Source: Anaerolineae bacterium
GTDB taxonomy: Bacteria; Chloroflexota; Anaerolineae; Aggregatilineales; Phototrophicaceae
Reading direction: 5' to 3'
DNA length: 64,000 nt
Assembly: GCA_022824365.1 (NCBI GenBank)
Contig: JAJEAA010000031.1
Location: 57,104-121,103 of the forward strand
Shown here one piece after another: positions 3,214 to 31,281 of the stretch. The notes below the pieces were generated by a model, which saw nothing but the letters and a program-made list of their open reading frames with translations, did not search any database and had not been told where the DNA came from. Made by a program: the position numbers and the translations under genes. The stretch's first letter is position 1. Each line of letters starts with the position of its first letter.

Positions 3214-3215
3214 AC

Positions 3216-4961
3216 ATGTCGCGAATGTTCGTCCTCAGTGAGCATTCAGGCGAATGGCAGCGCGCTTGCCGCTTGGTCAATTATCTGCTGCGGGAAGGCG
3301 CGGAGCTTCGCTGGGCAACCGAGCCCTTCAAGGCGCTGACTTCGGAGGAGCAAACGCTCGCTTTGGCGCGCGGCGACTACCTGATTGCCGACCTCAAGCA
3401 TGTGTCGCAGGCGATGCTGAACGCGGCGCAGGCGCGATACGGCATTCAAGCGCAAGCGGTCGATTCTCTGCGCGGATTCGTCGGTCTGCTGCTGCAGCCC
3501 TTGCGGATTGCCCTGTACGGGGGCGGTGGCGCGCCCTTCAATCACGCGCGCATTTTTGCGGAACTGGGCTTTCACACCGAGTTCATCAGCCCGCAGGAGG
3601 TCCGCGCCGGGATGCTGGACGAGTACGATCTGTTCGGTGTGCCGGGCGGCGGTGGACTGGCCATGATAGGTCAGTTGACGCCGCTGGGCGAAGACGGCTG
3701 CCGGCGGATCAAAGACTGGGTGCAGCGCGGCGGCATGTACATTGGCTCCTGCGCCGGCTCCTTTGACGCGGCGATCGTGGCTGAGAGTTTCCTGGAAGTC
3801 TGCCCGCAGCAAAGTCAGATGCAGCTTGTCAACGCCCTGATATGGAACCGCGGCGACACCGAATGGATCGGCCTGGAATCGCCCGGCGTCGGCGTCATCA
3901 AGAGCCGCAATTTGCAGCCGGATCATCCGGTGATGTTCGGACTGCCTGAGCGCTTCGACATCACGCATTACAATGGCCCCCTCTTCGACACCGATACGGC
4001 TGTCTTGCCCGATGCTTCGGCAGCGAAAGGCCTGGCGGCGGTCGCCGGCGCGCGAGACGACTTCACGCCGTCGGAGCGATTCCTAAGTTTCAGCCAACCC
4101 CGTCAACTCGACGCGACCCTGCTGGGCCGCGCGGCGAAGGAAGGACGCTTCAATATCGTCAGCGGTTACAACGGCTTGGGGCGGGTGCTGCTTTTCGGTT
4201 CGCATCCGGAGTTTGGCTACAATCTGGCGATGGACAATTGGGGCGCGCCGGCGCGGATGTTGGCGAACGCGGCTTATTGGCAGTCAGCCCAACTTGGCGC
4301 CGGACGTCCGACGATGGTCAAACGAGAACGAGGTATCGCGCAGTCCCATCCGCTGGGCAGCGGTCTGAGCCGGATCGCGGAAGCTTGCGGCGCTATCAAC
4401 AACGCGGTCGAGGCATTGCACGACCTGGCAACGGACAACGCGACCTGGCTGGACGAGTCACATGCCATGTCGGTATTTGGCATGAGCGGACGCGAGGTCT
4501 GGCAACGAGGCTTGGGCGACTTTGCTGATTTGACCGGGCGGATGCATGTCGCGCTGGAGCGAGCGAATAACCTGCTCAAGCGAGCTGACGCCCTGCTCAA
4601 TAATGACGGTGCCGACGCTGACCAGCGCAAGCAAGTGTTGAGCGACATGTTGTCCGCGCTTGAAGAGGCGGTGCATCATCAAACGCCGGCGGAATGGCGG
4701 CAGGATTTCGGCTATGAGGGCGTCTTGCAGATGCTCAAGCGGGCGGAATCGATGCTGCGGCGCGCAAAGGACAACGGCGACAGCGCCTTCGACGCCTCGG
4801 ATAATCCTTATGCCTATTTCGAGTCGAGTCCATATCAACTGGTGGTCGGCTCATATCTGGCGGCTAATGGCGTCGCCCTGAACAGTTGGCAGTTGCTGCA
4901 AGCGCATCTGCTGCGAATTGAGGAGCAGATTTTTGCCATCGACGCGGCAGCCCTCAATTGA
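3216..4961 (+). CDS. Class-I glutamine-amidotransferase-like / BPL_N-like domain protein with unassigned C-terminal half
   Basis: 581 aa. N-terminal half has GVPGGGG and GGMYIGSCAGSF (nucleophile-elbow Cys), as in GATase1/BPL_N folds. Starts directly after the ATPase stop, so probably in the same operon. Confidence 0.6.
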   Translation: MSRMFVLSEHSGEWQRACRLVNYLLREGAELRWATEPFKALTSEEQTLALARGDYLIADLKHVSQAMLNAAQARYGIQAQAVDSLRGFVGLLLQPLRIALYGGGGAPFNHARIFAELGFHTEFISPQEVRAGMLDEYDLFGVPGGGGLAMIGQLTPLGEDGCRRIKDWVQRGGMYIGSCAGSFDAAIVAESFLEVCPQQSQMQLVNALIWNRGDTEWIGLESPGVGVIKSRNLQPDHPVMFGLPERFDITHYNGPLFDTDTAVLPDASAAKGLAAVAGARDDFTPSERFLSFSQPRQLDATLLGRAAKEGRFNIVSGYNGLGRVLLFGSHPEFGYNLAMDNWGAPARMLANAAYWQSAQLGAGRPTMVKRERGIAQSHPLGSGLSRIAEACGAINNAVEALHDLATDNATWLDESHAMSVFGMSGREVWQRGLGDFADLTGRMHVALERANNLLKRADALLNNDGADADQRKQVLSDMLSALEEAVHHQTPAEWRQDFGYEGVLQMLKRAESMLRRAKDNGDSAFDASDNPYAYFESSPYQLVVGSYLAANGVALNSWQLLQAHLLRIEEQIFAIDAAALN

Positions 4962-5040
4962 TTCGTTTGTCCGCATGTAGGGAGTGGTGATTTTGGCGGA
5001 TGTGAAACATTAGCATTGATATCGGGTTTCCGCAGCTAAG

Positions 5041-5080
5041 CTCCCCTCCCCAAAGCTTTGGGGAGGGGCCGGGGGTGGGG
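5041..5080 (+). repeat. REP-A hairpin element (CCCCTCCCC...GGGGAGGGG plus G-rich tail)
   Basis: Perfect 26-nt palindrome cccctccccaaagctttggggagggg followed by ccgggggtgggg. Confidence 0.85.
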
Positions 5081-5147
5081 TAGAAAAGGCAATATCCGCA
5101 GAATTCACCACTCCGCGCATGTATGTACGTTTGACAAGGAGAAAGAC

Positions 5148-5387
5148 ATGAGCTACGGCAGAGCAAGCTCGGACGAAACGCTTGACGCGGCGGTCGTCCA
5201 GGCTTTGGCGAAGAAGATGGGCTTGGACCTCTCGGCGGAAGAAGCCGAGATGCTGACGGCGCTGCTGATGAATCAACTGGCGGCGGTCGAGTCTTTCAAC
5301 GCTTTTGACCTGCAGGATATCGTACCAGCGCCGATCTTCCGGCTGGGTCGCGTAGACACTGACCTTCGAGGAGCGAGCGATGACTGA
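5148..5387 (+). CDS. Small AtzG/GatC-like amidase partner protein
   Basis: 79 aa from ATG 5148, preceded by AAGGAG. Helical, acidic, ends ...PAPIFRL, like AtzG-type small subunits. 8-nt overlap with the amidase gene. The upstream part of the listed ORF (5058-5147) is REP sequence. Confidence 0.55.
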   Translation: MSYGRASSDETLDAAVVQALAKKMGLDLSAEEAEMLTALLMNQLAAVESFNAFDLQDIVPAPIFRLGRVDTDLRGASDD

Positions 5388-6792
5388 CCTGAACGAACTG
5401 TCCCTGAGCGAGGTAAGCGACCTGCTTGAAGCGGGCGAGATCTCATCCGTCGAGTTGGTCGAAGTGAACCTGCGCGCCATCGAAAAGACCGAGCCGGTCG
5501 TGCATGCTTATGCCAGTGTGCTGGCCGAGGAAGCCTTGGAAGCAGCGCGGGCGGCTGACGAGGAAATCGCGGCGAGCGGGCGGCGCGGTCCCTTGCACGG
5601 CCTGCCCATCGGCGTCAAGGACAATATCTACACCGAGGGCCGCCTCACCGAATGCGGCTCGCGGGTGATGGCCGGTTTCCTGCCCGATCACAGCGCAACC
5701 TGCGTGGTGAACCTGGAGCGGGCCGGCGCGATCATCATCGGCAAGACGCATTGCCACGAATTCGCCTATGGCGTGAATACGCCGCCCAGCCGCAGCCCCT
5801 GGAATATGGATTGCTATCCGGGCGGCTCCAGCATCGGCTCGGGCGTGGCGGTGACGAGCCGCTCGTCCTTCGGCGCTTTGGGCACCGATACAGGCGGCTC
5901 CATTCGCGTGCCGGCCTCCATCAACAATCTGGTGGGCATGAAAGCCAGCTTCGGCCGCGTCAGCATTTACGGCGTCGTGCCGGTGGCTTGGTCCCTGGAT
6001 CATGTGGGACCGATGACGCGCCGGGTCAAAGACAACGCCCTGCTGCTGGCGGGCATGGCCGGTTATGACCCCAAAGATCCGACCAGCGCGAATCAACCCG
6101 TGCCCGACTTTTGCGCCGATTTGGAAGCGGGCGTCGCCGGCTTGCGCATCGGCATCGAGCGGGATTATTTCTTCTACGATGGCGTCATCGACGAGATTCG
6201 CGAGTCGGTCGAGAGCGTCATCGCCGAGTATCAGCGGCTGGGCGCCGAGATTGTCGAGATCAGCCTGCCCGAGTTGGAGATCACGCAGGACGCGCTCTTC
6301 ACCATCGTGCTCTGCGAGGGCAGCACCTGGCACCGCAAGTTGATCCGCGAGCAAGGCGACAAGTATGACCCGGCCACCCGCGCTATCGTGCAATTGGGCG
6401 AGCTACTGCCGGCGACGCATTATCTGGCGGCGCAGCAAGCCCGCTCGCTGTATCGAACTGCGCTCAACCGCGCCTTCCGCGAGCAGCGGCTGGACGCCAT
6501 GCTTGGACCCACGATGCCAATCCCGACCGCGCCCCTCGATATGCTGAATGCGCCGCGGGCGGACGGCTATCCCGATACGCCGGTGGGCTCGATGTGTCAC
6601 CACACCTTCAACGCCAATCTGGCCGGTCTGCCCGCGCTGAGCGTGCCCTGCGGGATTACCAGCGATGGCCTGCCCTTCGGTTTTCAGTTGACCGGGCGCG
6701 CCTTCGACGAAGCGCTGGTCTACCGGATCGCCTACGCCTACGAGCGCGAGCATGACTGGCATGAGCGGAAGGCAGAGATTGCGGGGCTGTAG
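5380..6792 (+). CDS. Amidase-signature family amidase (GatA/AtzE-like)
   Basis: 470 aa with GVKDNI (catalytic Lys context), GGSSIGSGVAV and GTDTGGSIRVPA amidase-signature motifs. Confidence 0.9.
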   Translation: MTDLNELSLSEVSDLLEAGEISSVELVEVNLRAIEKTEPVVHAYASVLAEEALEAARAADEEIAASGRRGPLHGLPIGVKDNIYTEGRLTECGSRVMAGFLPDHSATCVVNLERAGAIIIGKTHCHEFAYGVNTPPSRSPWNMDCYPGGSSIGSGVAVTSRSSFGALGTDTGGSIRVPASINNLVGMKASFGRVSIYGVVPVAWSLDHVGPMTRRVKDNALLLAGMAGYDPKDPTSANQPVPDFCADLEAGVAGLRIGIERDYFFYDGVIDEIRESVESVIAEYQRLGAEIVEISLPELEITQDALFTIVLCEGSTWHRKLIREQGDKYDPATRAIVQLGELLPATHYLAAQQARSLYRTALNRAFREQRLDAMLGPTMPIPTAPLDMLNAPRADGYPDTPVGSMCHHTFNANLAGLPALSVPCGITSDGLPFGFQLTGRAFDEALVYRIAYAYEREHDWHERKAEIAGL

Positions 6793-6811
6793 TCAAGCTG
6801 CCAGGCCGAAT

Positions 6812-7921
6812 CTATCGCGGCGACCAACTGGTGTCCTCCACGTCGCAATCCATATCGGTCAACTGCTGTATGGCGCTGCCATCCCGGCGCATTTTGAACA
6901 GTTGGCGAGGTTCCATGTCTTGACTGTAAGCGATCCACTCGCTATCCGGTGACCAGGTTGCGCCATGCGGCCTGCCAACCGTCAGGAGCCGCAGTTCGCC
7001 GGTCCCCATGTCATACAGATGCAAACTGCGTTCATCTGAATTTCGCTCCCAGCTCGTTAGCGCCAGCCATCTGCCGTCCGGCGACCAGACGACGCCGCTA
7101 ACATTCAGCGTGAGCTCAATCTCAATGCGTTTGGCCATAACATTGTAGACGAGCAACTGGTCATCCGGGTCAAGAGCGACGCGTTCGCTATCCGGCGCCC
7201 AGACTATGCGATAGACGTCATCCTTAACCGCAAGCTCGACATCCGGCCCCCGGCCATGGAAGTTAACGAAACGAATCGTGTTCGCATCTCTGACATATCG
7301 CGGAAGCTCGTAGGCAAGCCAGCTTCCATCGGGAGACCAGGCGACCGGCGAGAAGCCGCCCCCTACGCTGGTAACATCTTTCAACCAATGTGAATCTCGC
7401 CCGTCCGCCGATACTCGATACATATTGCGAGCCACGACATAGTTGATGGCTTTTCCATCAGCTGTCCAACTGACATGCTCTTCCCGCTTGTGATTGAATG
7501 TCAGTCGCCGCCAAATTGATCCATCGAAGCGAACGATAAAGACTTCTGATAGATGCCACGCGCCCACGCCATAAAGCGCCGCTGCCAGCCACTCGCCATC
7601 AGATGACCAAACCGGCCCGTCGCCGAGACCGGTCGGATAGCCGCCGAAAATCTGCCGCAAGTTGCTCCCTTCAGGCTCGACAGTGTAGAGGCCTGTCGAG
7701 CAGGAAAAAGCGATCAGGTCCGATTCTTTGGCACTTGGAACCGCCCGGTTGGAGACTTGTTGAACTCGATACGAGAGCTGTTGAAATGGCACAGAGAGCT
7801 GGATATTCAACACCAGCCAGCCGATTCCACAGATTGCAAATGGTGCGATTACCAGCACTAAGAGCAGGCGCAGGCAACCGACGTGCGGCGGCCTTGGCGC
7901 GCGTTTTCGCTTTTCCTTCAT
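6812..7921 (-). CDS. Membrane-anchored PD40/TolB-like beta-propeller protein
   Basis: 369 aa. N-terminal hydrophobic anchor (LLLVLVIAPFAICGIGWLVL). Repeated WSSDG/WSPDG/WAPDS PD40-type motifs. Confidence 0.75.
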   Translation of the reverse strand: MKEKRKRAPRPPHVGCLRLLLVLVIAPFAICGIGWLVLNIQLSVPFQQLSYRVQQVSNRAVPSAKESDLIAFSCSTGLYTVEPEGSNLRQIFGGYPTGLGDGPVWSSDGEWLAAALYGVGAWHLSEVFIVRFDGSIWRRLTFNHKREEHVSWTADGKAINYVVARNMYRVSADGRDSHWLKDVTSVGGGFSPVAWSPDGSWLAYELPRYVRDANTIRFVNFHGRGPDVELAVKDDVYRIVWAPDSERVALDPDDQLLVYNVMAKRIEIELTLNVSGVVWSPDGRWLALTSWERNSDERSLHLYDMGTGELRLLTVGRPHGATWSPDSEWIAYSQDMEPRQLFKMRRDGSAIQQLTDMDCDVEDTSWSPR

Positions 7922-18949: not shown

Positions 18950-19867
18950 TTGACCATGCGCGACGAGCATAAGGGACTTGGCCCGAGCCCAAAATCTCTT
19001 GATGGAGAAGTCGAAGGCGGCGGGTTTTTCCAATCGCGTTTCTGGCGGCGTTACCGGCGTCATCGGCTGGCGCTGCTGGGCGCGGCGGCTTTGCTCATTT
19101 TGGTCGGCATCGCCGTTTTTGCGCCTTTGATCACGAGTCATGATCCGCTGCGCGTCAACATGCGCGATACCAAAGAGCCGCCGAATGAAGTTTATGTGCT
19201 AGGCACAGACAAAGCCGGGCGCGATATGTGGGCGCGCTTGGCCTACGCCAGCCGGATTTCGCTGTCGGTCGGAGTTGTATCGGTATCGATTTACATCGTC
19301 ATCGGCACCATATTGGGCGCCATCGCCGGCTATTACGGAGGCTTTACCGATTCGCTGATCATGCGTTTCACAGACACGGTGATGAGTTTTCCCGGCTTGA
19401 TCATCATCATCACCGTGGTGTCTTTTGTGGGGCCGAGCATCTACAACGCCATGCTCGTCATCGGCTTGTTGGGCTGGCCCGGGACTTGCCGCTTGGTTCG
19501 CGGACAAGTGTTGCAATTAAGGGAGATGGAGTTCATAGAAGCAGCGCGCAGCATGGGCACGCCGGCGCCGCGGATTATCTTGCGCCATATTCTGCCGAAT
19601 GTGGTTCCCTATCTGATTGTTGTGGCGACCTTGGGCACAGCCAGCGCGATTCTGATTGAAGCGGGCTTGAGCTTCCTCGGGCTGGGGGTACAGCCGCCAA
19701 CGCCGAGTTGGGGCAATATGCTCAACAGCGCGCGGCAGCTAACCTTGCTGGAGCAGTTTCCGCATTTGTGGCTGCCGCCTGGTCTTATGATTGCGATTAC
19801 AGTCTTGAGCATCAACTTCATCGGCGATGGCTTGCGCGACGCCTTGGACCCGCGCATGAGCCTTTAG
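18950..19867 (+). CDS. ABC transporter permease, DppC/OppC-like
   Basis: 305 aa with OppC-type N-terminal segment, EAA-loop region (AARSMGTPAPRIILRHILPN) and C-terminal GDGLRDALDPR. Confidence 0.9.
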   Translation: MTMRDEHKGLGPSPKSLDGEVEGGGFFQSRFWRRYRRHRLALLGAAALLILVGIAVFAPLITSHDPLRVNMRDTKEPPNEVYVLGTDKAGRDMWARLAYASRISLSVGVVSVSIYIVIGTILGAIAGYYGGFTDSLIMRFTDTVMSFPGLIIIITVVSFVGPSIYNAMLVIGLLGWPGTCRLVRGQVLQLREMEFIEAARSMGTPAPRIILRHILPNVVPYLIVVATLGTASAILIEAGLSFLGLGVQPPTPSWGNMLNSARQLTLLEQFPHLWLPPGLMIAITVLSINFIGDGLRDALDPRMSL

Positions 19868-19896
19868 GCAAACTTAGCCAATACGAAGGACAGAAG

Positions 19897-20988
19897 ATGA
19901 TGAGCATTCCCTTGATTGACCTGGCGGATGAAAGCGAGCGGCAGGTTTTGGTGGATCGACGCCCGGAACAATATCTCGGGCATGTCACCACTGTGCTGCT
20001 CGAAGACAACCGAACGATGTACGCCACCTACCCTATCGGCCATGGCAAGGGGCAGATTCTCTTGAAACGCAGCGATGACGGCGGGCTAACCTGGAGCGAG
20101 CGCTTGCCGGTACCGGACAATTGGTCAACCTCAAAGGAAGTGCCCACCATCCACCGGGTGGTGGATATGCAGGGTGTGAAGCGCTTAATCCTGTTTTCCG
20201 GCTTGTATCCGATCCGGATGGCGGTCTCCGAAGATGACGGAGCGACTTGGTCCCCGCTTGAGGCAATTGGCGATTTTGGCGGGGTGGTGACGATGTCTTG
20301 CCTGGACCGGCTCAAAAACGGCGATTACATGGCGCTATTTCACGATGACGGCCGCTTCCTGCGGAACAAAGGCCTCACCGAGCGCCCTTTTAAGGTCTAC
20401 AAGACAATCTCCAGCGACGGCGGTCTTAGCTGGAGCCAGCCGGAAGCGATCGCGCAACATGAGGAGGCTGACCTCTGCGAGCCGGGTTGGATACGCTCGC
20501 CCGATGACGATCGCATCGCTGTGCTCTTGCGCGAAAACAGCCGGCGGTTCAATTCCTTTGTGATCTTCTCCGATGACGAAGGCAAAAGCTGGACGGAACC
20601 GGCCGAACTGCCGGCGACGCTGACAGGCGACCGGCACATCGGCAAATACGCGCCGGACGGCCGTCTCTTCATCACCTTCCGCGATGAAGCGAAGAGCAGC
20701 CCTTGGATGGCGGATTGGGTGGCTTGGGTCGGGACTTTCGACGACATCGTAAACGGCTGTGAGGGGCAGTACAAAATTCGGCTTATGCGCAATCACGGAC
20801 GCAATCAGCGCGGCGACTTCATCTTCGGCGACTGCGCTTATCCCGGGTTGGAAGCGCTGCCGGACGGGACCTTTGTGACGACGACTTATGGGCATTGGAC
20901 GCTGAACGAGCCGCCTTACATCATGAGCGTGCGGCTGACGCTGGCGGAGATGGACGCCAAGCGAAACGACGCGGCGGGAGCACATTGA
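19897..20988 (+). CDS. BNR/Asp-box repeat glycosidase (sialidase-like)
   Basis: 363 aa from ATG 19897 (GAAGGA upstream). Four Asp-boxes: SDDGGLTWS, SEDDGATWS, SSDGGLSWS, SDDEGKSWT. The listed upstream extension overlaps the permease gene. Confidence 0.75.
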   Translation: MMSIPLIDLADESERQVLVDRRPEQYLGHVTTVLLEDNRTMYATYPIGHGKGQILLKRSDDGGLTWSERLPVPDNWSTSKEVPTIHRVVDMQGVKRLILFSGLYPIRMAVSEDDGATWSPLEAIGDFGGVVTMSCLDRLKNGDYMALFHDDGRFLRNKGLTERPFKVYKTISSDGGLSWSQPEAIAQHEEADLCEPGWIRSPDDDRIAVLLRENSRRFNSFVIFSDDEGKSWTEPAELPATLTGDRHIGKYAPDGRLFITFRDEAKSSPWMADWVAWVGTFDDIVNGCEGQYKIRLMRNHGRNQRGDFIFGDCAYPGLEALPDGTFVTTTYGHWTLNEPPYIMSVRLTLAEMDAKRNDAAGAH

Positions 20989-20991
20989 ATT

Positions 20992-22224
20992 ATGTCCCAG
21001 CCCCAAAACGACGCTGATTTCTCTTTGCAGCCGGTCTTCGTCAACGGCCGCGAAGGCTACGCCTGCTACCGTATTCCCAGCATCATTCGCCTGGGCAATG
21101 GGGATTTGCTGGCGGTGGCGGAGGGGCGCCTGGCGAATTGCGGCGATCATAACGGCATCATCCGCGTCGTCGGCAAAATCAGCCAGGACAGAGGGAGGAC
21201 TTGGGGCGGTGTTTTCACCATTGCGCGCAACATCTTGCCCGACGGCACAGAGCATGTGGCGCAGAATCCATCGCCGGTCCTGGACATGATGGATGCCGAC
21301 AATCCCCAAGGGCGAGCCATCATCATCTACAACAAGACGGAATTCGGCGAACAATTCATCACCGGCGGCAGCGGCGTGCGGCGCGCCTGCGCCATCGAGA
21401 GCTTCGACCACGGACGAAGCTGGCTGAATGAGACGGATATCACCGCGCAAGTGCATAAACCGCTGAAGCCAAACTATACCGCGGTTTACGCCGATGCGGC
21501 CGAGCGCTACAACCACCCGGAAGACTGGCGCATGAACTTCCCGGCGACCGGGCACGGCATCCAGTTGCGCGGGGGCCTGCGCAACAGCCCGGCGACGCGC
21601 GGACGCTTATTCTATTGCGCTAAATTGACCAAAGGGGACCGGTCAGTCCGCCACGGGCAAAATTATGCCTATTGGAGCGAGGACCATGGGCGGAGCTGGA
21701 CTATTGGCGGAGTCAGCGCTGTCCTCGGCAGCAGCGAGGCGATGGCGGTCGAGCTGGAATCGGGCGATATCATGGTGAACTTCAGGAACAATACGGGACC
21801 AGATGGCGCCCCTGTCAATTTCCGCGGGGTGATGATCCATCAGTTCGACGAAGACGGCAATATCTTGATGGCGGCAACTCATAGAGATGACGAAGGGCTG
21901 CCCGACCCCATCGTGCAAGGCAGTATCCAGCGCTATACCTGGAGCGACGAAGCTGAATACGGGAACAAGAGCCGCATCCTTTTTTCCAATCCAGCCAGCC
22001 AAAGGGCGCGGGAAAAGATGACCGTGCGCTTAAGCTATGACGAAGGGCGGACTTGGCCGGTGGCGAAGTTGGTTGACAGCGGCCCGTCGGCTTATGGCGA
22101 CTTGACCGTGCTGGACGATATGCGCATCGGTTTGCTTTATGAGCAGGGGAACAGTGGCGGCATCGTTTTCGCGCGCTTTACCTTGGATTGGTTGAGCGCC
22201 GGGAAAGATTCGCTGAGCGGATAA
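20992..22224 (+). CDS. Exo-alpha-sialidase (GH33-like)
   Basis: 410 aa. Sialidase RIP motif (YRIPSI). Asp-boxes SQDRGRTWG, SFDHGRSWL, SEDHGRSWT, SYDEGRTWP. Confidence 0.85.
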   Translation: MSQPQNDADFSLQPVFVNGREGYACYRIPSIIRLGNGDLLAVAEGRLANCGDHNGIIRVVGKISQDRGRTWGGVFTIARNILPDGTEHVAQNPSPVLDMMDADNPQGRAIIIYNKTEFGEQFITGGSGVRRACAIESFDHGRSWLNETDITAQVHKPLKPNYTAVYADAAERYNHPEDWRMNFPATGHGIQLRGGLRNSPATRGRLFYCAKLTKGDRSVRHGQNYAYWSEDHGRSWTIGGVSAVLGSSEAMAVELESGDIMVNFRNNTGPDGAPVNFRGVMIHQFDEDGNILMAATHRDDEGLPDPIVQGSIQRYTWSDEAEYGNKSRILFSNPASQRAREKMTVRLSYDEGRTWPVAKLVDSGPSAYGDLTVLDDMRIGLLYEQGNSGGIVFARFTLDWLSAGKDSLSG

Positions 22225-22297: not shown

Positions 22298-24160
22298 CTA
22301 ATAATAATTCTCGCGCCCTTTGTTCGCCTCATAATCGACGCGGGCCGCTTGCACCGCCTCCATCTCCGAGACTTCCGCCACCGGCACATCCCACCAGGAG
22401 CCGTAACCCGGGACGCGCTGCCGCCGGTCAACCTCGGTCACGATGCAGACGGGACCGCCCTGATGCGCTTTCGCCTCTTCCATAGCGCGGGAGAATTCCT
22501 CGCGGTCGCGCGCGCGGATGACATGAGCGCCCAGGCTCTCGCAATTCTTGGCGAAATCAATCGGCAGGGTCTCGCCATCAAGCTGCCCCGAGTCGCTGCG
22601 ATAGCGATACTTGGTGCCGAAGCCATCACTGCCGACGCTCTTCGACAGCGCCCCGATACTGGCGAAACCATGATTATCGACCACGATGATATTCACCTTG
22701 ATGCCCTCTTGCACCATCGTCACGATCTCGGTGTGCATCATCAGGAAAGAACCATCGCCCACCATCACCCAGACCTCGCGCTCCGGCTCAGCCAGCTTGA
22801 CGCCCAAGCCGCCGGCGATCTCGTAACCCATGGTCGAATAACCATATTCGAGGTGATAGCCCTTGCGGTTCCGCGTGCGCCAAAGCTTGTGCAAGTCGCC
22901 GGGCATGCTGCCGGCCGCGCAGAGCACCGTGTCCCCCGCGCCCGATAACGTATTGACCATGCCAATGACCTCGCCCTGGCTCAACATCGGCTCGTGCTCA
23001 AGATTATAAATGCGATGCACCTCGGCATCCCAAGCCCGGTTGCAAGCCTGGACGCGCGCGCGATAATCATCGGCGACGGCGTAATCCGAAAGCGCCGCCG
23101 ACAACTCCTCCAGCGTGACGCGGGCATCGCCGATCAAAGGCAAGGCGCTGTTCTTGTAAGCATCGAACTCGGCGACGTTGATATTGATGAAGCGGGCGCC
23201 TTCACGAGCGAAGGCGGTGTTGGAGGCGCTGGTGAAATCGCTGTAGCGCGTGCCGATGCCGATGACGAGGTCGGCTTCGCTCATCAGCGCGATGGCGCCT
23301 TCCGTGCCGGTCACGCCGGCCGCGCCCAGGTTGACCGGATTGTCATACAGCAGCGCGCCCTTGCCCGCCTGCGTCTCCGTCACCGGAATGCCCGTCCGCG
23401 CCGTGAAAGCTTCCAGCGCATCGTGCGCATCGCTGTAATGGATGCCGCCGCCAGCCACGATGATGGGCTGCTCGCTCTCGCGGATCCACCCCGCCGCCCG
23501 CTGAACCGCCGCGACATCCGGGCGATTGCGCGGGATCTGCCAGACCCGCTTCTCGAACATGTCAGCCGGATAATCGTAAGCGTAGGCTTGTATGTCCTGC
23601 GGCAAGCTGAGCGTGACCGCGCCGGTATCGGCCGGCGATGTCAGCACGCGCATCGCTTCCGGCAAAGCCGTGATGATCTGTTCGGGCCGATTGATGCGAT
23701 CCCAATAACGCGAGACCGGCTTGAAGCAATCGTTGACGCTGAAATCCTGACTGTGCTCGCTTTCCACCTGCTGCAAGACGGGCGCCTGAATACGCTCGGC
23801 GAAGATATCGCCGGGCAAGATGAGGACGGGGATGCGATTGACCGTCGCCACCGCCGCGCCAGTGATCATGTTGGATGCGCCCGGACCAATCGACGAAGCG
23901 CAAGCGAAAGCCGCCAGCCGGTTGCGATGCTTGGCATAAGCCACCGCAGTCAGCACCTGCGCCTGCTCGTTGCGGCACTGATAATAGCGCAAATCGGGCG
24001 CGTATTGCTCCAGCGCCTGCCCGACGCCGGCGACATTGCCGTGGCCGAAGATGCCCCACATGCCGGCGAAGAAGCGGTTCTCGACGCCATCGCGGGCGAC
24101 ATACTGCGCGGCGAGGTATTTGACCAGCGCTTGGGACATGGTGAGGCGGGTGGTGGTCAT
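22298..24160 (-). CDS. iolD: 3D-(3,5/4)-trihydroxycyclohexane-1,2-dione acylhydrolase (TPP enzyme)
   Basis: 620 aa from ATG 24160 (MTTTRLTMSQALVKYL). TPP motif VMVGDGSFLMM. Sits in the operon with iolB, iolC and iolG. AAGGA lies 8-12 nt upstream. Confidence 0.9.
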   Translation of the reverse strand: MTTTRLTMSQALVKYLAAQYVARDGVENRFFAGMWGIFGHGNVAGVGQALEQYAPDLRYYQCRNEQAQVLTAVAYAKHRNRLAAFACASSIGPGASNMITGAAVATVNRIPVLILPGDIFAERIQAPVLQQVESEHSQDFSVNDCFKPVSRYWDRINRPEQIITALPEAMRVLTSPADTGAVTLSLPQDIQAYAYDYPADMFEKRVWQIPRNRPDVAAVQRAAGWIRESEQPIIVAGGGIHYSDAHDALEAFTARTGIPVTETQAGKGALLYDNPVNLGAAGVTGTEGAIALMSEADLVIGIGTRYSDFTSASNTAFAREGARFININVAEFDAYKNSALPLIGDARVTLEELSAALSDYAVADDYRARVQACNRAWDAEVHRIYNLEHEPMLSQGEVIGMVNTLSGAGDTVLCAAGSMPGDLHKLWRTRNRKGYHLEYGYSTMGYEIAGGLGVKLAEPEREVWVMVGDGSFLMMHTEIVTMVQEGIKVNIIVVDNHGFASIGALSKSVGSDGFGTKYRYRSDSGQLDGETLPIDFAKNCESLGAHVIRARDREEFSRAMEEAKAHQGGPVCIVTEVDRRQRVPGYGSWWDVPVAEVSEMEAVQAARVDYEANKGRENYY

Positions 24161-24174
24161 GGGGCAGTGTCCTT

Positions 24175-25119
24175 TCAAATCTCGGCTCTAAGTATTCTAT
24201 AAGGTTCGTTAGCGCATTCCCAATTCTTGATGTTTTCGCGAAGCGATGTCTTAATAAAATACTCTTCTTTATACTTATTTCTCAACTTCCGTTCGAGCTT
24301 CAAACGGTCACAAAGTTCCTTGAATCTTGATGGCAAACTTTGTCCAAACACTGATTTGAACATAATCGGCATCAGGTACGCGATGAGAGCGACGGTGTCA
24401 TGTCCTTGGCAGAGTTGTATGTTCGGCGTCTGATACTTGTCTATTGCTTTGAGTTTGGCGACTCCCGCTAATAGCTCCTCATGTTCTATCCGTTTGTCTA
24501 TCACTCGATTCTTCCCGGCGTTATGGAATTCGGTTAGCCGCATAGCGAAGCGATCCCGACGAATCTGTATCGAGTCAATGTCTTCTGCATCAACGAATTC
24601 ATCATAGGCATAGCGGCGACTTTTCCAAAAGTCCTTAAAATTGATGCCAAAACTCTTACAGTCATTGAGCAACCGAAAGTAGCCGAATTCCATTGCCAAA
24701 CGCTCTGCTTCAGTCGTTACTACCTCTGCAAGCTTCTGTATGTCCGGATCGTCATCAAGGCCAAACTCCTTATTCAAAACATCCGTCAAGGTGGCTGAAT
24801 TCAAGATAATCAGTTCCGCATCCGGATAGCATTCGTCATAAAGCAGGTCTTTCTGGCATAGTTTATCCGATTCCGTAATAAGCCAATAATCTGCATCTAT
24901 AATACCTGCGAAACCAGATACCTTACGTTCCTGTCTAGACTTAAGACGGGATTTCACCTTTAGCTTGCCACCTACGCGCTCTAGCTTACAGTGGATGCAC
25001 GAAAAAAATCTTCTCCAGAGCACCTCGTCCGCAGGCCCTTCAACAAAAATAGTCGCACGCTTTTGCGTCGACATCCTATGACGATTGGAATGATAATACT
25101 CAGTCTTTCTAATGGTCAT
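24175..25119 (-). CDS. DUF4435/TOPRIM-like protein, AriB-like (PARIS effector-like)
   Basis: 314 aa, AT-rich codons. IFVEGPAD (Toprim Glu), GIIDADY (DxD), YPDAELIILNSATL are typical of DUF4435. ATGA overlap with the upstream ATPase gene. Confidence 0.75.
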   Translation of the reverse strand: MTIRKTEYYHSNRHRMSTQKRATIFVEGPADEVLWRRFFSCIHCKLERVGGKLKVKSRLKSRQERKVSGFAGIIDADYWLITESDKLCQKDLLYDECYPDAELIILNSATLTDVLNKEFGLDDDPDIQKLAEVVTTEAERLAMEFGYFRLLNDCKSFGINFKDFWKSRRYAYDEFVDAEDIDSIQIRRDRFAMRLTEFHNAGKNRVIDKRIEHEELLAGVAKLKAIDKYQTPNIQLCQGHDTVALIAYLMPIMFKSVFGQSLPSRFKELCDRLKLERKLRNKYKEEYFIKTSLRENIKNWECANEPYRILRAEI

Positions 25120-26387
25120 CCCATGATCTCACTTTCGGGATATCCTAATCCGACCGTCCATTCCCACTTGTCATCAATGAGAGTCGGCGAGTGGGTCGCA
25201 ATGAGTAAGTCAATGTTCCTCAACTCGACTATTCGTTGAATGTCCCTAAGGAAATGTTCCTGCCAGTCAACATGAAGCGACAACTCCGGTTCGTCAATGA
25301 ATATCAAAGAGCCCGGTTGCGCCACAAAGACAAGATGATAGTAAAGAGCAAGCAAGTGTTTTTCACCAGACGACAGTCTATCCTCAGGGATTTCGCCCCC
25401 GTCACGGGCAAACAGTCTGTAATCTTTGCTGTATGCAGCGTCCTCATTGAACTTCAAGGATGCGAATAAAAACCGCCTGTTGACAATTTCTTCAAATAGC
25501 CGCAGTCTGGCATAAGAGTCTTCCGACGCCAACTCTATTGCGAATTCAAGTCTTGCCTCAATAACTGCATTACGATCTTGTATTTGCTGCATCAGCCGAA
25601 AGAATAGACCGTCGAACGGCCCGTATACCAAACGGAGAATGCCTTGAACGATTGACAACGGTAACGCAAAAGGTAGTACAAGGATGAACATAATCGCGAC
25701 TTCTATTCTTTCCCGTGAATTGGCATTTTTGAGATTCCTTAAGAACAGTTGGATATCTTTATTTTCACTTTGGAAAAAGCCGATAGTGAATACCTGTTTT
25801 GTTATCCCCTTCCAAAGATCAGCCTCCCTTGGGGCTGTATCGCTCTGCAATCGTCTTGTCCCATAAAACTCTGTGCTAATTGCGTGGCTTATTTCACTAA
25901 ACCATGGTGGGATCTCGCCATGAATTCTCTTATGCAATTCAGGGAAATCATTCAGAACCTCCTCTCTGCTAAGATAAACGCTCAATCGTCTTAGGCTAAT
26001 CCAAGCTGGCTCTTCGGTGAATTTACGCCTAAGAAGGTCAAGTGGTCGAAGTGAATCTACTACTTCGTCGAAATTATCTTCCGGTACATATGGCGCGAAC
26101 TCCGCAATAGTCCCATTGTCACGTTCAATTGATAAATAATCATCTCCATCGCCAAATTGAACGGTAATACAATCTTCTCCCTCCAGTTCAACTCGAAATT
26201 GCTCGAAATGCATAGTCGTGAATGGCTCATAATCATGGTTGAACAACCCATGCACCATCCTCAACAACACAGTCTTCCCCACCCCATTCGGACCATGAAT
26301 AATCGTAATCCGAGACTCCTGATTCAACGGAATCTCGTGATCGAACATCCCAAACAAGCCCTTCACGGAGATCTTCGTAATCCGCAC
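25116..26387 (-). CDS. ABC/SMC-type ATPase, AriA-like (PARIS sensor-like)
   Basis: 423 aa, GTG start. Walker A GPNGVGKT, signature LSSGEK, Walker B LIFIDEPELSLH, H-loop ATHSP. AT-rich relative to flanks. Confidence 0.75.
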   Translation of the reverse strand: MRITKISVKGLFGMFDHEIPLNQESRITIIHGPNGVGKTVLLRMVHGLFNHDYEPFTTMHFEQFRVELEGEDCITVQFGDGDDYLSIERDNGTIAEFAPYVPEDNFDEVVDSLRPLDLLRRKFTEEPAWISLRRLSVYLSREEVLNDFPELHKRIHGEIPPWFSEISHAISTEFYGTRRLQSDTAPREADLWKGITKQVFTIGFFQSENKDIQLFLRNLKNANSRERIEVAIMFILVLPFALPLSIVQGILRLVYGPFDGLFFRLMQQIQDRNAVIEARLEFAIELASEDSYARLRLFEEIVNRRFLFASLKFNEDAAYSKDYRLFARDGGEIPEDRLSSGEKHLLALYYHLVFVAQPGSLIFIDEPELSLHVDWQEHFLRDIQRIVELRNIDLLIATHSPTLIDDKWEWTVGLGYPESEIMG

Positions 26388-26415
26388 TTCTTAGCCCTTT
26401 CCTCTTGCATTGAAG

Positions 26416-26454
26416 CCCCTCTCCCCTTGTGGGAGAGGGGTTTGGGGTGAGGGG
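26416..26454 (+). repeat. REP-A hairpin element
   Basis: cccctctccc / gggagagggg stem plus tail tttggggtgagggg. Abuts the iolB stop codon and the AT-rich island boundary. Confidence 0.8.
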
Positions 26455-27336
26455 TTACCCCTCCATCCCATGATGCACAATCGGCAACCGCGGATCCAGG
26501 TACGTCCACGTCCCCTTCACCCACGCATACGCCGGATCATCGCTGTTCGCCAACGACTGCGCGCTGCCCGCCAAAAAATTCAAATAGTAGGTCGTATACC
26601 CGTGCGCGCTGACCACCGGATGATAACCCTCCGGCACAAGCACCGTATCGTGATTCTCCGCCATCATCACGCCGTCAATGCTGCGGTCGTCATTGTAAAC
26701 GCGCTGATAAGCGTAACCGCCCGGATGATCGATCTTGTAGAAGTAGATCTCTTCCAGGTCGGCTTCCAGCAAGTTGCCCGCCTCGTCTTCTTTGTGTACA
26801 TCATGCTTGTGCGGCGGATAACTCGACCAGTTGCCCGAGGGCGTATAAACCTCGACCGCCACGATGCGATGGCAGTTGAAACCGGGCGGCAAAATCCCGT
26901 TGATCTGCCGCGAAGCATTGCCGCCGCCGCGCAGTTCAATCTCGCTCATATCGGGACTCACCAGTTGCGTCGGAAAATCCTGATCGGTCGGGACCCAGCA
27001 AGAGGCGAATTCCAGCCTGTCGCTTGTCGCCCTGATTGTGAATCGCTTGCGCCGCGACATATACAGCGCCCAGGGCATGCCGCTGAAAACATCGGGCCGC
27101 CGCCCCACATTCACGAACTCGCCGTCCGATGTGACGATATCGCAAGTCCCGCCCAGGATGACGGTAGCGTTTTCGTGCTCGCGCGTCTCGACGCTGAAGC
27201 TCTCGCCCCGGCTCAGGCGCATCGCCGCCATGTTGAGATAATCCCAACCCGCTTGCCCGGCGCTGACCTCGGCGAAGATGCCCGAATCGCCGCTGTCCTT
27301 CGATTTAATCAGCATCGTCTCTGATGTGTATTGCAT
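26455..27336 (-). CDS. iolB: 5-deoxy-glucuronate isomerase
   Basis: 293 aa cupin-type IolB-like sequence (GWDYLNMAAMRL, VILGGTCD, PPHKHD) in iol operon context. Confidence 0.85.
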   Translation of the reverse strand: MQYTSETMLIKSKDSGDSGIFAEVSAGQAGWDYLNMAAMRLSRGESFSVETREHENATVILGGTCDIVTSDGEFVNVGRRPDVFSGMPWALYMSRRKRFTIRATSDRLEFASCWVPTDQDFPTQLVSPDMSEIELRGGGNASRQINGILPPGFNCHRIVAVEVYTPSGNWSSYPPHKHDVHKEDEAGNLLEADLEEIYFYKIDHPGGYAYQRVYNDDRSIDGVMMAENHDTVLVPEGYHPVVSAHGYTTYYLNFLAGSAQSLANSDDPAYAWVKGTWTYLDPRLPIVHHGMEG

Positions 27337-27370
27337 ACGTTATACCTCCAAGACAAGTTCAAGATAATCT

Positions 27371-27573
27371 AACCACAGAGGGCACAGAAGTAGAATCAAC
27401 AAAGTAATGAGAAAATATTGCAAGGTAAAGAGATTGGCAAAAACCGTAATCATTGTAGCTTACGACATCCACTACATTTCATTTGTCGCATGACTAACTT
27501 GGTTTTACTGAGAGCGCAAAGGGTTGATAGAAATAGTTTCTTTTCTCTGTGTCCTCTGTGATCTCTGTGGTTC
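27371..27573. mobile_element. MITE-like AT-rich element bounded by CACAGAG-type inverted repeats
   Basis: Left end aaccacagagggcacagaag (27371-27390). Right end, reverse-complemented, reads gaaccacagagatcacagagg (27553-27573). The first 10 nt are identical and the cacaga core is shared. About 160 nt of AT-rich non-coding sequence lies between them. Confidence 0.5.
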
Positions 27574-27580
27574 AAAAAAA

Positions 27581-28093
27581 TCATGCGCCAAGCCGCTCGA
27601 CATAAGCCCGCAGGTCATCCACATGATCAGCATAATGCGCGAAGGTATTGCCCACCAGAAAATAAAGCAGCGGCATCCCGCGAATATCGCAGACCTCGGC
27701 GTCATTGATTTCCTCATCGCTGAGGCGGTTAATCAGCGCTTCCAGCGGCGGAAAGCTGACCTCGAACATCTCGAGCACGGTATTCAGCGGCAGGTCGCGA
27801 TTGTCCGCGAAGACGCGGGCGTTGATCTCATCCGGCGTCTCCGTCCGCGCCAGCAGCTCGCCGGTCAAAGCCCGCGAGACCCAGTTGGTCGCCGTTTGCT
27901 CCCACCAGGTGATATGCGCGATGATGTCCTTGACCGACCACTCCGGATGCGGTCCCGGCCGGCGCGTCAACTCCTCGTTGTCCAAACCCAGCCAGAGCGC
28001 TTCCAACTCGGCCCGTTCCCGCCGCGCCCGCTCCAGCAGGTCATCGCCGCTCATATACGTGATCCAGCCCTCTTCGTTCGTCTCAGTAACCAT
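27581..28093 (-). CDS. DinB/ClbS-like four-helix-bundle protein
   Basis: 170 aa from ATG 28093. WSVKDIIAHITWWE and FAHYADHVDDL His-containing helices are typical of DinB_2/ClbS-like proteins. The upstream extension of the listed ORF is REP sequence. Confidence 0.6.
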   Translation of the reverse strand: MVTETNEEGWITYMSGDDLLERARRERAELEALWLGLDNEELTRRPGPHPEWSVKDIIAHITWWEQTATNWVSRALTGELLARTETPDEINARVFADNRDLPLNTVLEMFEVSFPPLEALINRLSDEEINDAEVCDIRGMPLLYFLVGNTFAHYADHVDDLRAYVERLGA

Positions 28094-28138
28094 AGCTATT
28101 TCCTTCCAGTATCTCCAAACCCCACGCGCATGGCGACT

Positions 28139-28200
28139 GCCCCCCTCCCTAATGCTTTGGATGCCCGCCATAGAGATGGCGGGAGGGGCCGGGGTGGGGG
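28139..28200 (+). repeat. REP-A long variant with inner CCCGCCAT-AGAG-ATGGCGGG hairpin
   Basis: Outer arms cccctccc / gggagggg, inner palindrome 28164-28183, tail ccggggtggggg. Homologous in inverse orientation to 32627-32696. Confidence 0.8.
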
Positions 28201-30734: not shown

Positions 30735-30962
30735 GCATCTGACCGGACAAGGAGAATGAAAATGGACGGACCCAAGCTGAAGCCAGTCCCGCCGGACACT
30801 GTCGCAGCCGATGAAGATGACCGCGAGCCGACGAAAGAAGAAATCATGGAAGATATTCGCCAGGGCCTGCGCGATGTGATGGCTGGGTACAGAGGTCAGG
30901 ATGCGATGGAATTCCTTGACGAGCTAGAACGCGAAGCTATGGTTGATGCCGACGAGAGTTGA
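30583..30962 (+). repeat. Tandem duplication (228-nt period) covering the antitoxin C-terminal coding region
   Basis: 30591-30725 and 30819-30953 differ at 4 positions, all synonymous third-codon sites (ggc/ggt, gac/gat, gaa/gag, gtc/gtt). Confidence 0.9.
30756..30962 (+). CDS. Putative antitoxin, copy 2 (partner of RelE/ParE-like toxin)
   Basis: 68 aa with AAGGAG upstream. Stop overlaps the toxin start. DREPTKEEIMEDIRQGLRDVMAGYRGQDAMEFLDELEREAMVDA is shared with copy 1. Confidence 0.65.
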   Translation: MKMDGPKLKPVPPDTVAADEDDREPTKEEIMEDIRQGLRDVMAGYRGQDAMEFLDELEREAMVDADES

Positions 30963-31281
30963 CACCCACCCGACATTTCGTAAACGAACTAGGAGGCTCC
31001 GCCGCCGGTTTCCCTCGATCCATCTCGATTTACGCCCTTTATTCCAGCGTCTCAGGAACGATGAACGCCCAGGCGATAGAATTCCCGGCATCGGCCACAC
31101 CGTCTACAAAGTACGCCTGCCCAATCGCGCGGCGCAGCGGGGCAAAAGCAGCGGCTTCCGCGTCATCTATTATGCCCAATTCAACGACCGCGTCACCCTG
31201 CTCACCATCTATTCCAAGACCGACGACACCGACATCAGCGCCGCGGAGATTCGCCAATTGGCGCTTGAGGCGGATGAATAG
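30943..31281 (+). CDS. RelE/ParE-superfamily toxin (HigB/RelE-like)
   Basis: 112 aa. YKVRLPN...GKSSGFRVIYY...VTLLTIYSKTDDTDIS matches the common RelE/ParE toxin pattern. TTG 30943 or ATG 30946 start. Confidence 0.8.
   Translation: MMPTRVDTHPTFRKRTRRLRRRFPSIHLDLRPLFQRLRNDERPGDRIPGIGHTVYKVRLPNRAAQRGKSSGFRVIYYAQFNDRVTLLTIYSKTDDTDISAAEIRQLALEADE

Follow-up and report, generated by a model that had tools for sequence, protein, structure and literature searches.

A divergent PARIS-type gene pair between iolB and iolD in the inositol operon of a Chloroflexota clade

We analyzed a 64,000-nucleotide stretch of DNA from an Anaerolineae bacterium (the window: positions 57,104 to 121,103 of contig JAJEAA010000031.1, GenBank assembly GCA_022824365.1, forward strand; GTDB lineage Bacteria; Chloroflexota; Anaerolineae; Aggregatilineales; Phototrophicaceae), in which two genes resembling ariA and ariB of the PARIS defense system lie between iolB and iolD of a myo-inositol catabolic operon. 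We describe the pair, its distribution at this site in related genomes, and the evidence for how its alleles have diverged and recombined, and then weigh what the locus may be.

The gene pair and its relation to PARIS

The surrounding genes belong to the inositol pathway by their NCBIfam matches, which exceed the equivalog cutoffs for iolD (913 bits; cutoff, 715), iolB (313; 205), iolC (382; 300), and iolG (449; 355). An earlier note on this DNA, made from the sequence alone, had described two AT-rich minus-strand genes between iolB and iolD that are coupled through an ATGA overlap, with 14 nt from the AriB-like stop to the iolD ATG and an AAGGA in this spacer. The open reading frames (ORFs) with their ATGA overlap, the GC profile (0.43 to 0.47 across positions 24200 to 26400, compared to 0.57 to 0.66 in the flanks), and the sequence of the junction all agree with that description, and every protein motif quoted in the note is found in the translations of the 423-aa and 314-aa ORFs. 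The slot and its flanks are made up as follows.

26455..27336, minus strand: iolB (5-deoxy-glucuronate isomerase), the upstream conserved flank of the slot (Pfam KduI, 2.9e-80; NCBIfam TIGR04378)
25116..26387, minus strand: AriA-like ABC ATPase, 423 aa, GTG start (Pfam, PADLOC, PDB sequence, and fold matches)
24175..25119, minus strand: AriB-like DUF4435/Toprim protein, 314 aa (PADLOC AriB, family profiles, Toprim-core fold)
24161..24174, minus strand: 14-nt spacer with the iolD ribosome-binding site AAGGA (sequence)
22298..24160, minus strand: iolD (trihydroxycyclohexane-1,2-dione [THcHDO] acylhydrolase), the downstream conserved flank of the slot (NCBIfam TIGR04377)

The AriB-like stop codon, TGA, occupies positions 24175 to 24177 and is followed by the 14 nt AAGGACACTGCCCC and then by the iolD ATG at 24160. 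The GAAAGGAC motif of this spacer is also kept in L024 and L033 (here and below, L-numbers denote related loci compared with the window, and P-numbers denote DUF4435-family proteins from a profile search). At the other junction, 67 nt separate the iolB stop from the AriA start.

The 423-aa protein matches Pfam AAA_21 with 83.2 bits (profile positions 1 to 304 of 304) and AAA_15 with 71.6 bits. The Pfam-based PARIS detection rule of Rousset 2022 (PMC9122126) calls for an ATPase with AAA_15 at at least 32 bits or AAA_21 at at least 27 bits and a partner with DUF4435 (PF14491) at at least 27 bits, and the window protein scores above both ATPase thresholds. Its top PADLOC model is AriA (2.5e-23), and its best PDB sequence match is AriA 8ux9 of the PARIS complex (2.6e-17), in an alignment that spans the Walker A plus the signature/Walker B regions, while its identity to solved AriA is only 15 to 19%. 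When we searched with an AlphaFold2 (AF2) model of the protein, which has a pLDDT of 74 overall and low values in the variable middle, the top 15 Foldseek matches were AriA chains (8ux9 and 8v45-49; E values of 3.8e-15 to 4e-12) with template-modeling (TM) scores of 0.43 to 0.53 (0.66 at most, for a single shorter chain). PtuA of Septu and retron systems came next, ~5 orders of magnitude weaker, with E values of at least 1.5e-10 and TM scores of 0.3 to 0.4.

Over 30 AriA alleles, we found the Walker A residues G32 to K38, the signature residues G341/E342, the Walker B residues D365 to E368, and the H-loop residues T398 to P401 to be invariant, and K38, D365/E366, G341/E342, and H399 are also invariant among 53 database homologues. 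In Escherichia coli AriA, the catalytic residues are K39 of Walker A and E393 of Walker B (PMC11464382), to which K38 and E366 of the window protein correspond. Column identity is ~0.9 at residues 1 to 40 and 341 to 420 versus 0.06 to 0.50 at residues ~100 to 340, which delimits a further feature of the gene.

25368..26090, minus strand: hypervariable AriA middle, ~aa 100 to 340, a helical insertion (column identity over alleles)

We presume that this middle is the sensor/scaffold region of the protein. The AF2 model places helices at residues 196 to 305 with pLDDT values of 37 to 72, and in E. coli AriA it is the insertion sequences and the coiled-coil that build the scaffold and pores (PMC11464382). 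A transmembrane-like hydrophobic stretch is present at ~aa 225 to 262 of the window AriA, where the AF2 model puts it in the helical insertion with low confidence.

The 314-aa protein had no Pfam match at an E value of ≤10, leaving the DUF4435 half of the detection rule without a score, and no NCBIfam match. Its sole match in a search of 5,027 PADLOC models is AriB (PDLC02983; 5.5e-6), with residues 23 to 246 aligned to profile positions 4 to 219 of 236. Pfam DUF4435 (PF14491) is detected in 31 of 46 close relatives of the window AriB, and for 44 of the 46, AriB is the only PADLOC model matched. A profile of the clade AriB, searched against 1.84 billion representatives, retrieved 3,060 proteins, and in a sample of 52 from this wider family, PF14491 is found in 46 (best, 1.2e-18) and PADLOC AriB in all 52 (best, 6e-29). 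These family-level profiles, through which its membership is seen, indicate that the 314-aa protein is homologous to the DUF4435/AriB family. OLD/Gabija (GajA) was considered as an assignment and set aside, with the ATPase and Toprim parts on two separate ORFs in all loci, PADLOC Old matching 3 of the 52 sampled proteins, and GajA matching none.

We also found that E27, G28, D31, D75, D77, and D95 are invariant over 33 AriB alleles and that D100 and E102 are nearly so. The Toprim acidic residues of E. coli AriB are E26, D30, D88, E90, and E122 (PMC11464382), and the acidic residues of the window protein appear to match this pattern, residue equivalence being taken from the motif pattern and not from an alignment. 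An AF2 model of the window AriB has a pLDDT of 91, and its Foldseek matches in the PDB are small Toprim proteins (2i5r/2fcj; probability, ~0.9) and RNase M5, with probabilities of at most 0.91 and a target TM score (TMt) of ~0.45; no AriB chain is among the top 50 PDB matches, and a Foldseek search of BFVD with this model gave no match. Likewise, phmmer and two profile searches against PDB sequences retrieved marginal Toprim matches only (1t6t, 0.18 and 0.025; RNase M5, 0.67) and no AriB.

In all loci, AriA and AriB are adjacent, co-oriented, and tightly coupled, with gaps of −23 to +3 nt. The PARIS-like label given by the earlier note is upheld, on the ATPase side by Pfam, PADLOC, PDB sequence, and fold, and on the nuclease side by PADLOC and family profiles. 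Its more specific assignment of the 314-aa protein to DUF4435/AriB holds in part, as the protein has no Pfam DUF4435 match of its own, while its PADLOC AriB match, the family-level profiles, and the acidic residues speak for AriB. To call the window pair a divergent PARIS-type system (AAA_21 plus DUF4435) is therefore essentially right. Since detection based on the Pfam rule overlooks the window AriB, similar embedded systems may be under-counted.

Position, variability, and occupants of the slot

Among iolB homologues, the two nearest to that of the window (89% and 87% identical, on 4.6- and 3.7-Mb contigs) are likewise separated from iolD by an AAA_21 plus DUF4435-like pair. Overall, we found such pairs on the iol strand of the iol cluster in over 30 related Chloroflexota assemblies, 26 of them from different species. 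When we scanned one genome per GTDB species, we found 26 loci with a member of the window AriB family, all of them titled Chloroflexota, Anaerolineae, Aggregatilineales, or Phototrophicaceae. The pair adjoins iolB and/or iolD on the iol strand in 22 of these 26 species representatives, and same-strand pairs by iolB/iolD are also present in L032, L033, L037, L083, L084, and L086. Three of the remaining four species loci have the pair beside PhyH or GFO/IDH/MocA genes, and genes of these kinds come after iolD in L032 and L084. In L007, L009, L028, and L030, iolD is flanked by a pair on either side (slot 1 and slot 2), the two being 32 to 43% identical to each other, and L086 has a pair on both sides of iolD as well.

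The junctions are tight in much of the clade. With gene starts estimated from alignments, the gap from iolB to AriA is ≤6 nt (often 2 to 6 nt) in 11 of 19 loci, and 19 of 22 loci have −4 to +23 nt from AriB to iolD; L011, L013, and L022 fall outside this range, the last with a restriction-modification (R-M) system between AriB and iolD. The AriB stop and the iolD start overlap in L007, L008, L023, L028, and L032. L017 and L033 run iolG-iolC-iolB-AriA-AriB-iolD with gaps of 8, 44 to 45, 2, 2, and 18 to 19 nt, respectively. In L032, iolC (5990 to 7002) is called as two ORFs of 163 and 160 aa in an otherwise complete 4.6-Mb contig, which could be a frameshift or a pseudogene.

Empty sites are found farther away. 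In Phototrophicus methaneseepsis (iolB 77% identical) and in ~21 metagenome loci (iolB 65 to 85% identical), iolB is followed directly by iolD, and none of the metagenome loci has an AriA/AriB hidden Markov model (HMM) match. In the sampled genomes with iolB at least ~87% identical and an identifiable slot, the slot is always occupied. The earlier note had the cassette inserted into the operon of this one genome, a claim that falls with the occupied slots of close relatives across the clade, and it expected iolB-iolD adjacency in related genomes, which is seen only in the more distant lineages (iolB ≤85% identical) and not in close ones. It also asked whether related genomes carry the same two genes; they do so by position (22 of 26 species and six more loci) but not by sequence, which is hypervariable and mosaic. 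The pairs are not conserved iol enzymes, because they are hypervariable, mosaic, and low in GC and share their slot with other defense genes. In L036 (iolB 92% identical), 1.7 kb after iolB (1956 to 3653) with a GC content of 0.51 to 0.58 is without a long sense ORF, and no AriA or AriB similarity was found in this 1.7 kb by HMM or tblastn; it could be a degraded slot, other content, or an assembly problem.

The pairs differ in divergence from the genes that flank them. In 16 genomes with complete slot-1 loci, the mean pairwise identity is 89% for iolB, 84% for iolD, 46% for AriA, and 50% for AriB, with iolB ranging from 84 to 97% and iolD from 78 to 98% between clade genomes. Spearman coefficients are 0.60 for iolD and iolB, 0.03 for iolD and AriA, and −0.04 for iolD and AriB, values that serve as effect sizes only, given that pairwise values are non-independent. 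L024, the genome closest to the window, has iolD 97.6% and iolB 92.5% identical but AriB only 36 to 39% identical. All pairs are low in GC (0.44 to 0.53 versus 0.53 to 0.65 in the flanks), and dN/dS of orthologous pair modules is 0.21 to 0.37, compared to 0.06 to 0.17 for iolB/iolD of the same genome pairs. We read the pairs as working genes, with purifying selection on the engine and rapid change in the presumed sensor.

Divergence is also uneven along the pair. L083, which comes from the same sampling series as the window, has AriA 83.6% identical to that of the window but AriB only 38% identical, while L006 has AriB 70% identical but AriA only 41% identical. By blastn, ~83% homology between the window and L083 runs from iolB through AriA to position 24877 and resumes at 24183; that between the window and L008 covers iolB plus the first ~146 nt of AriA and resumes at 24911, running through iolD; and that to L007 in AriB begins at 24909, with L006 and L007 carrying the same AriB 3′ module. 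The switch between these tracts defines the following feature.

24877..24911, minus strand: crossover zone in AriB, codons ~70 to 81 around D75-x-D77, upstream of L083/L084 type and downstream of L006/L007/L008 type (blastn tracts)

Because the L083 and L008 homology tracts switch within these positions, the window cassette is a chimera joined at the AriB DxD motif (D75-x-D77), a catalytic motif that provides homology between alleles diverged elsewhere. The first ~120 to 200 nt of AriA are likewise conserved between alleles at the DNA level. In the spacer between the HNH and methylase genes of L084 (3644 to 3745), ~70 nt of the iolD 5′ end with its ribosome-binding site (81% identical) are fused to ~30 nt of the AriA 5′ end, which is the scar of an earlier rearrangement at the iolD/AriA 5′ anchors. 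Nearest-neighbor alleles come from the same slot in 20 cases and from the other slot in 4 for AriB, and in 14 and 5 cases, respectively, for AriA, so some alleles have moved between slots 1 and 2. In L010, the slot-2 AriA (3648 to 5944) is split into two parts (3648 to 4187 and 5072 to 5944) 884 nt apart, with AriB intact; this could be an insertion or a pseudogene, and if the split is real, no intact AriA accompanies the AriB toxin there. Between the window and L083, dS is 0.41 for AriA, 0.58 for iolB, and 0.64 for iolD.

Other genes occupy the same site. L039 and L040 (iolB 84% identical) carry a single low-GC SIR2 gene (Pfam SIR2_2; PADLOC Aga_SIR2, 2.7e-12) in the slot, the pair of L022 is accompanied by a type II methylase and a TdeIII-type endonuclease, and L084 has an HNH gene, a methylase, and a HinfI-type endonuclease with the pair. 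All slot occupants are low in GC and oriented with the iol operon. The iolB-iolD site is thus a defense hotspot, with different defense systems in different genomes.

We found no integrase or transposase Pfam families in the gene tables of L032, L033, L083, and L084, and no clade members on IMG/VR viral contigs. A search for terminal repeats, direct or inverted, at the ends of the window cassette gave only short chance-level matches plus a hairpin. Two forms of carriage were considered and rejected: that of an integron cassette, as the only hairpin precedes AriA, belongs to a dispersed repeat, and is missing from L024 and L033, no integrase is listed in the gene tables, and the 3′ junction is only 14 nt and holds the iolD ribosome-binding site; and that of a phage or satellite, as no relatives are on IMG/VR. 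The top-scoring representatives of the exhaustive AriB profile search belong to the iol-embedded clade, including P0222 (245 bits), which is iol-embedded with two pairs. In the next tier, P0230 (196 bits) and P0240 (170 bits) are free-standing AAA_21 plus DUF4435 pairs in non-iol contexts, one of them beside a DNA methylase. On the strength of these free-standing outgroup pairs, and with three sampled outgroup/ingroup contexts in all, an ordinary PARIS-type pair probably colonized the iol operon once and then diversified in place.

Junction hairpin and transcription

The spacer between iolB and AriA and the sequences around the unit contain the following elements.

26393..26454, minus strand: ~62 nt extra relative to L024/L033, with a REP-like hairpin (arms 26413..26425 and 26431..26443) (alignment)
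27412..27440, minus strand: sigma70-like site TTGCCA-17-TATTTT within the 244 nt of AT-rich spacer that precede iolB (consensus match only)
24194..24223, minus strand: sigma70-like site TTGGGA-18-TAGAAT within the 3′-terminal part of AriB, with the iolD ATG ~34 nt downstream (consensus match)
L008 452..466 and 4731..4745; L011 3738..3752; L013 683..697; L023 533..547 and 3543..3557; L083 5876..5890: copies of the REP-like (repetitive extragenic palindromic) core

A perfect 10-bp GC hairpin, CCCCTCTCCC-ACAA-GGGGAGAGGGG, without a T-run lies at 26416 to 26440 in the spacer from iolB to AriA, whose ~70 nt fold at −27.2 kcal/mol (z = −2.1). The iolB-AriA gap is 5 nt in L024 and 2 nt in L033. The earlier note had called the hairpin a copy of a REP element. 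No second copy was found within the window, where it is single-copy, but its core, CACCCCAAACCCCTC, which a GC hairpin follows, recurs in the iol spacers of five related loci, with copies at the iolB-AriA junction for L008 and L083 and elsewhere among the iol spacers for L011, L013, and L023, so that "REP-like" is a fair label. The hairpin loop of L083 is ~30 nt longer than that of the window. Judged from these alignments, the element is a lineage-specific REP-like repeat that entered the spacer as a secondary micro-insertion and does not mark a cassette boundary. The hairpin, which is no canonical terminator, might attenuate transcription or stabilize the upstream transcript.

The earlier statement that neither junction has a terminator or an obvious promoter is correct in its first half, as we found no terminator-like site at either cassette junction of the window, but sigma70-like sites are present upstream of iolB and inside the AriB 3′ end. 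The former lies in a GC dip at 27200 to 27800 and is a candidate promoter of an iolB-AriA-AriB-iolD unit; the latter is a possible internal promoter for iolD. A TTGGGA-18-TA[G/A]AAT site ending 13 to 19 nt before the AriB stop is present in 8 of 33 alleles, compared to 2.6% of other 60-nt bins. It overlaps the conserved N-W-E...Y-R/K-I-L codons, so its recurrence could be explained by a protein constraint or by a promoter constraint. Since AriA starts 2 to 6 nt after iolB and iolD abuts or overlaps AriB in many genomes, co-transcription of the pair with the iol genes is plausible from the architecture and seems the most likely arrangement, and expression of iolD most likely must pass through the pair. 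An Rfam scan of the full window gave no family at gathering score.

Interpretation of the locus and neighboring genes

We think it likely that the divergent PARIS-type pair is a resident of a clade-wide, intra-operonic iol defense hotspot and that it has been diversified there by homologous recombination. By homology, an AriA ABC-ATPase oligomer would sequester the AriB Toprim nuclease, a phage-encoded trigger would bind the variable region of AriA, and an ATP-dependent step would release AriB, which would then cut host tRNA and stop translation (abortive infection). The setting is a slot between iolB and iolD and a second one just after iolD in one Chloroflexota clade. On this reading, alleles and sub-gene modules are swapped there between lineages by homologous recombination anchored in the iolB/iolD flanks, the first ~40 to 50 AriA codons, the AriA C-terminal ATPase lobe, and the AriB DxD motif, and further defense genes (SIR2, type II R-M, and HNH) are added at the same site.

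The pairs can be compared to the PARIS of E. coli B185 and its relatives (Rousset 2022, PMC9122126; Burman 2024, PMC11464382; PDB 8ux9, 8v45-8v49), with which they share two overlapping genes for an AAA_15/AAA_21 ATPase and a ~300-aa DUF4435/Toprim protein. Both conserve the Walker A Lys, the Walker B Glu, and the acidic residues of the Toprim domain. In contrast to the E. coli system, window-type pairs are not carried by a phage or satellite (IMG/VR has none), they lie inside a catabolic operon with no promoter space of their own in many genomes, and they are restricted to a single locus in a single Chloroflexota clade. The slot itself resembles core defense hotspots (Pseudomonas aeruginosa cDHS1/2, Johnson 2023, PMC10250203; E. 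coli, PMC10121019) in its fixed site, conserved flanks, and variable low-GC defense content, in lacking consistent hallmarks of mobile genetic elements, and in that its content is uncorrelated with the flanking phylogeny; exchange at such hotspots has been proposed to occur by homologous recombination through the conserved flanks (PMC10250203; PMC10121019). Unlike those hotspots, the iol slot is internal to an operon, where it separates two enzyme genes of a single pathway, shares their orientation, and has junctions of 2 to 6 nt and −4 to +23 nt, and it is small (2 to 6 kb), with one system type dominant and alleles recombining at sub-gene resolution.

What is new here is that the site is internal to an operon, that the genes are tightly coupled, and that mosaicism reaches below the level of the gene; PARIS and core defense hotspots between conserved genes were known. 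A search of the literature for operon-embedded defense or for links between Chloroflexi, sponges, inositol, and defense found no prior description, although its coverage is incomplete and it is weak evidence of absence. O-antigen and capsule loci and hsdS-type specificity swapping are examples of hypervariable low-GC loci between conserved flanks under frequency-dependent selection. By analogy, the iol slot may be likened to them as a fixed, low-GC site with deep alleles shuffled against the backbone and modules swapped at conserved motifs, although the products of those loci are surface structures or R-M specificity subunits, expressed from promoters of their own, and that of the iol slot would be an abortive-infection sensor/effector within a catabolic operon.

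Four other explanations deserve consideration. A mobile PARIS cassette recently inserted into the iol operon of this genome, which by chance stayed intact, with close relatives lacking it, would account for the low GC of the cassette, the REP-like hairpin at one junction, and the direct succession of iolB and iolD in distant relatives, but it is extremely improbable given that all identifiable slots are occupied in the sampled genomes with iolB at least ~87% identical, that L024 and L033 lack the ~62-nt hairpin element and have AriA only 5 and 2 nt from iolB, and that no integrase or transposase was found in the gene tables, no terminal repeats at the cassette ends, and no viral copies on IMG/VR. 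It is also very unlikely that the pair belongs to another ATPase-nuclease defense family (OLD class 2, Gabija, AbiL, Septu, or MADS): the nuclease partner matches AriB alone among the PADLOC models (as do 44 of 46 and 52 of 52 relatives), this partner is a separate Toprim/DUF4435 protein, neither an HNH protein as in Septu nor fused as in OLD and GajA, and AriA chains rank ~5 orders of magnitude above PtuA in the fold search. What such an assignment has in its favor is that the PADLOC PtuA models come near AriA on the C-terminal ATPase lobe (1.2e-21 versus 2.5e-23), that PADLOC mad3 and AbiLi also match the window AriA, and that OLD-like Toprim models are touched by 3 of the 52 wider-family AriB relatives.

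A domesticated pair with an operon-linked, non-defense role, for example a Toprim nuclease that processes or destabilizes the iol mRNA or tunes iolD expression in another way, with variability reflecting relaxed constraint, would fit the restriction of the whole subfamily to the iol cluster, where it is found to either side of iolD, the overlaps of the AriB stop with the iolD start in five loci, the conserved sigma70-like motif at the AriB 3′ end, and the solved folds closest to the AriB core, which are those of small Toprim RNases, RNase M5 among them. We nevertheless consider this role improbable, as the same operon works in sister lineages that lack the pair, invariant catalytic motifs combined with a hypervariable AriA middle look sensor-like and not uniformly relaxed, dN/dS is <0.4, the slot also takes SIR2, R-M, and HNH genes, AriA is disrupted in L010, and the outgroup consists of ordinary PARIS-type pairs. 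Alternatively, the pair could be a selfish, toxin-antitoxin-like addiction module, with AriA as antitoxin and AriB as toxin, whose loss or polar disruption is lethal or cripples iolD and which brings no defense benefit. AriA is called an "antitoxin" by the PDB depositors, the tight embedding makes clean deletion hard, and the pair persists across the whole clade; however, the hypervariable presumed trigger region, the two non-redundant pairs, and the co-location with R-M and SIR2 genes point to phage selection, and an addiction module leaves allele replacement by recombination unexplained, so we give this explanation a low probability.

The resident defense pair that we favor has several observations weighing against it. 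Almost all data come from metagenome-assembled genomes, although the arrangement recurs in many independent assemblies, including 4- to 5-Mb long-read chromosomes. The window AriB falls below Pfam DUF4435 detection, and sequence profiles and Foldseek tie it to the solved E. coli AriB only via the Toprim core. Defense, trigger sensing, tRNA cleavage, and co-transcription are all properties that we infer. The tie of a whole subfamily to one catabolic operon is unusual for defense and could mean a functional link to the operon. Slot occupants keep a GC content of 0.43 to 0.53 in ~0.60 genomes despite apparently long residence, for which continued exchange, selection for AT richness, or an effect of codons are candidate causes. 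In addition, sense-strand sigma70-like sites are 4 to 6 times as dense in the cassette (0.57 to 0.76 per kb) as in iolB/iolD (0.12 to 0.15 per kb), and because of these sites, one of which recurs before iolD, expression need not depend only on an iol promoter.

The usual picture of defense systems is that of self-contained modules in islands or mobile elements, from which the iol slot, occupied within one pathway's operon in at least 26 species, differs, and the embedded pair evolves like an arms-race locus, with a hypervariable sensor, mosaic alleles, a duplicated slot, and co-resident R-M, SIR2, and HNH genes. A bolder reading, which we put forward as tentative and regard as doubtful, is that a catabolic operon has been co-opted as both an expression platform and a recombination scaffold for a hypervariable immune locus whose passengers (PARIS-type sensors and in some cases R-M or SIR2 genes) are transcribed only with the inositol operon, in a symbiont-rich Chloroflexota clade. 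If this were true, immunity would be coupled to one nutrient, the essential downstream iolD would guard costly defense genes from deletion, and module swapping at catalytic motifs would make new sensor/effector combinations. Co-transcription, if it holds, would by itself provide a natural case of nutrient-coupled immunity in which an operon shelters defense genes from loss. The more than 30 natural AriA/AriB allele combinations, in which catalytic cores are invariant and variable modules are swapped, also provide a panel for mapping trigger specificity and AriA-AriB compatibility.

Some neighboring genes of the window were noted as well. Two adjacent BNR/sialidase-like genes (Pfam BNR_2) at 19708 to 22224 on the plus strand converge on the iolD 3′ end; after iolD, relatives carry either PhyH, GFO/IDH/MocA, and Gln-synt_C genes or a second AriA/AriB pair instead. 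A DinB/DUF1706-family gene of normal GC lies between iolC and iolB at 27581 to 28171 on the minus strand; it is present in most clade genomes, those without it being L017, L033, and P. methaneseepsis, and looks like a second, older passenger in the iol operon. Upstream of iolG, a 112-aa ORF at 30943 to 31281 on the plus strand resembles HigB-2/RelE-family toxins (PDB 5ja9 and others; E value, 1e-5) and is probably the toxin of a type II toxin-antitoxin system.

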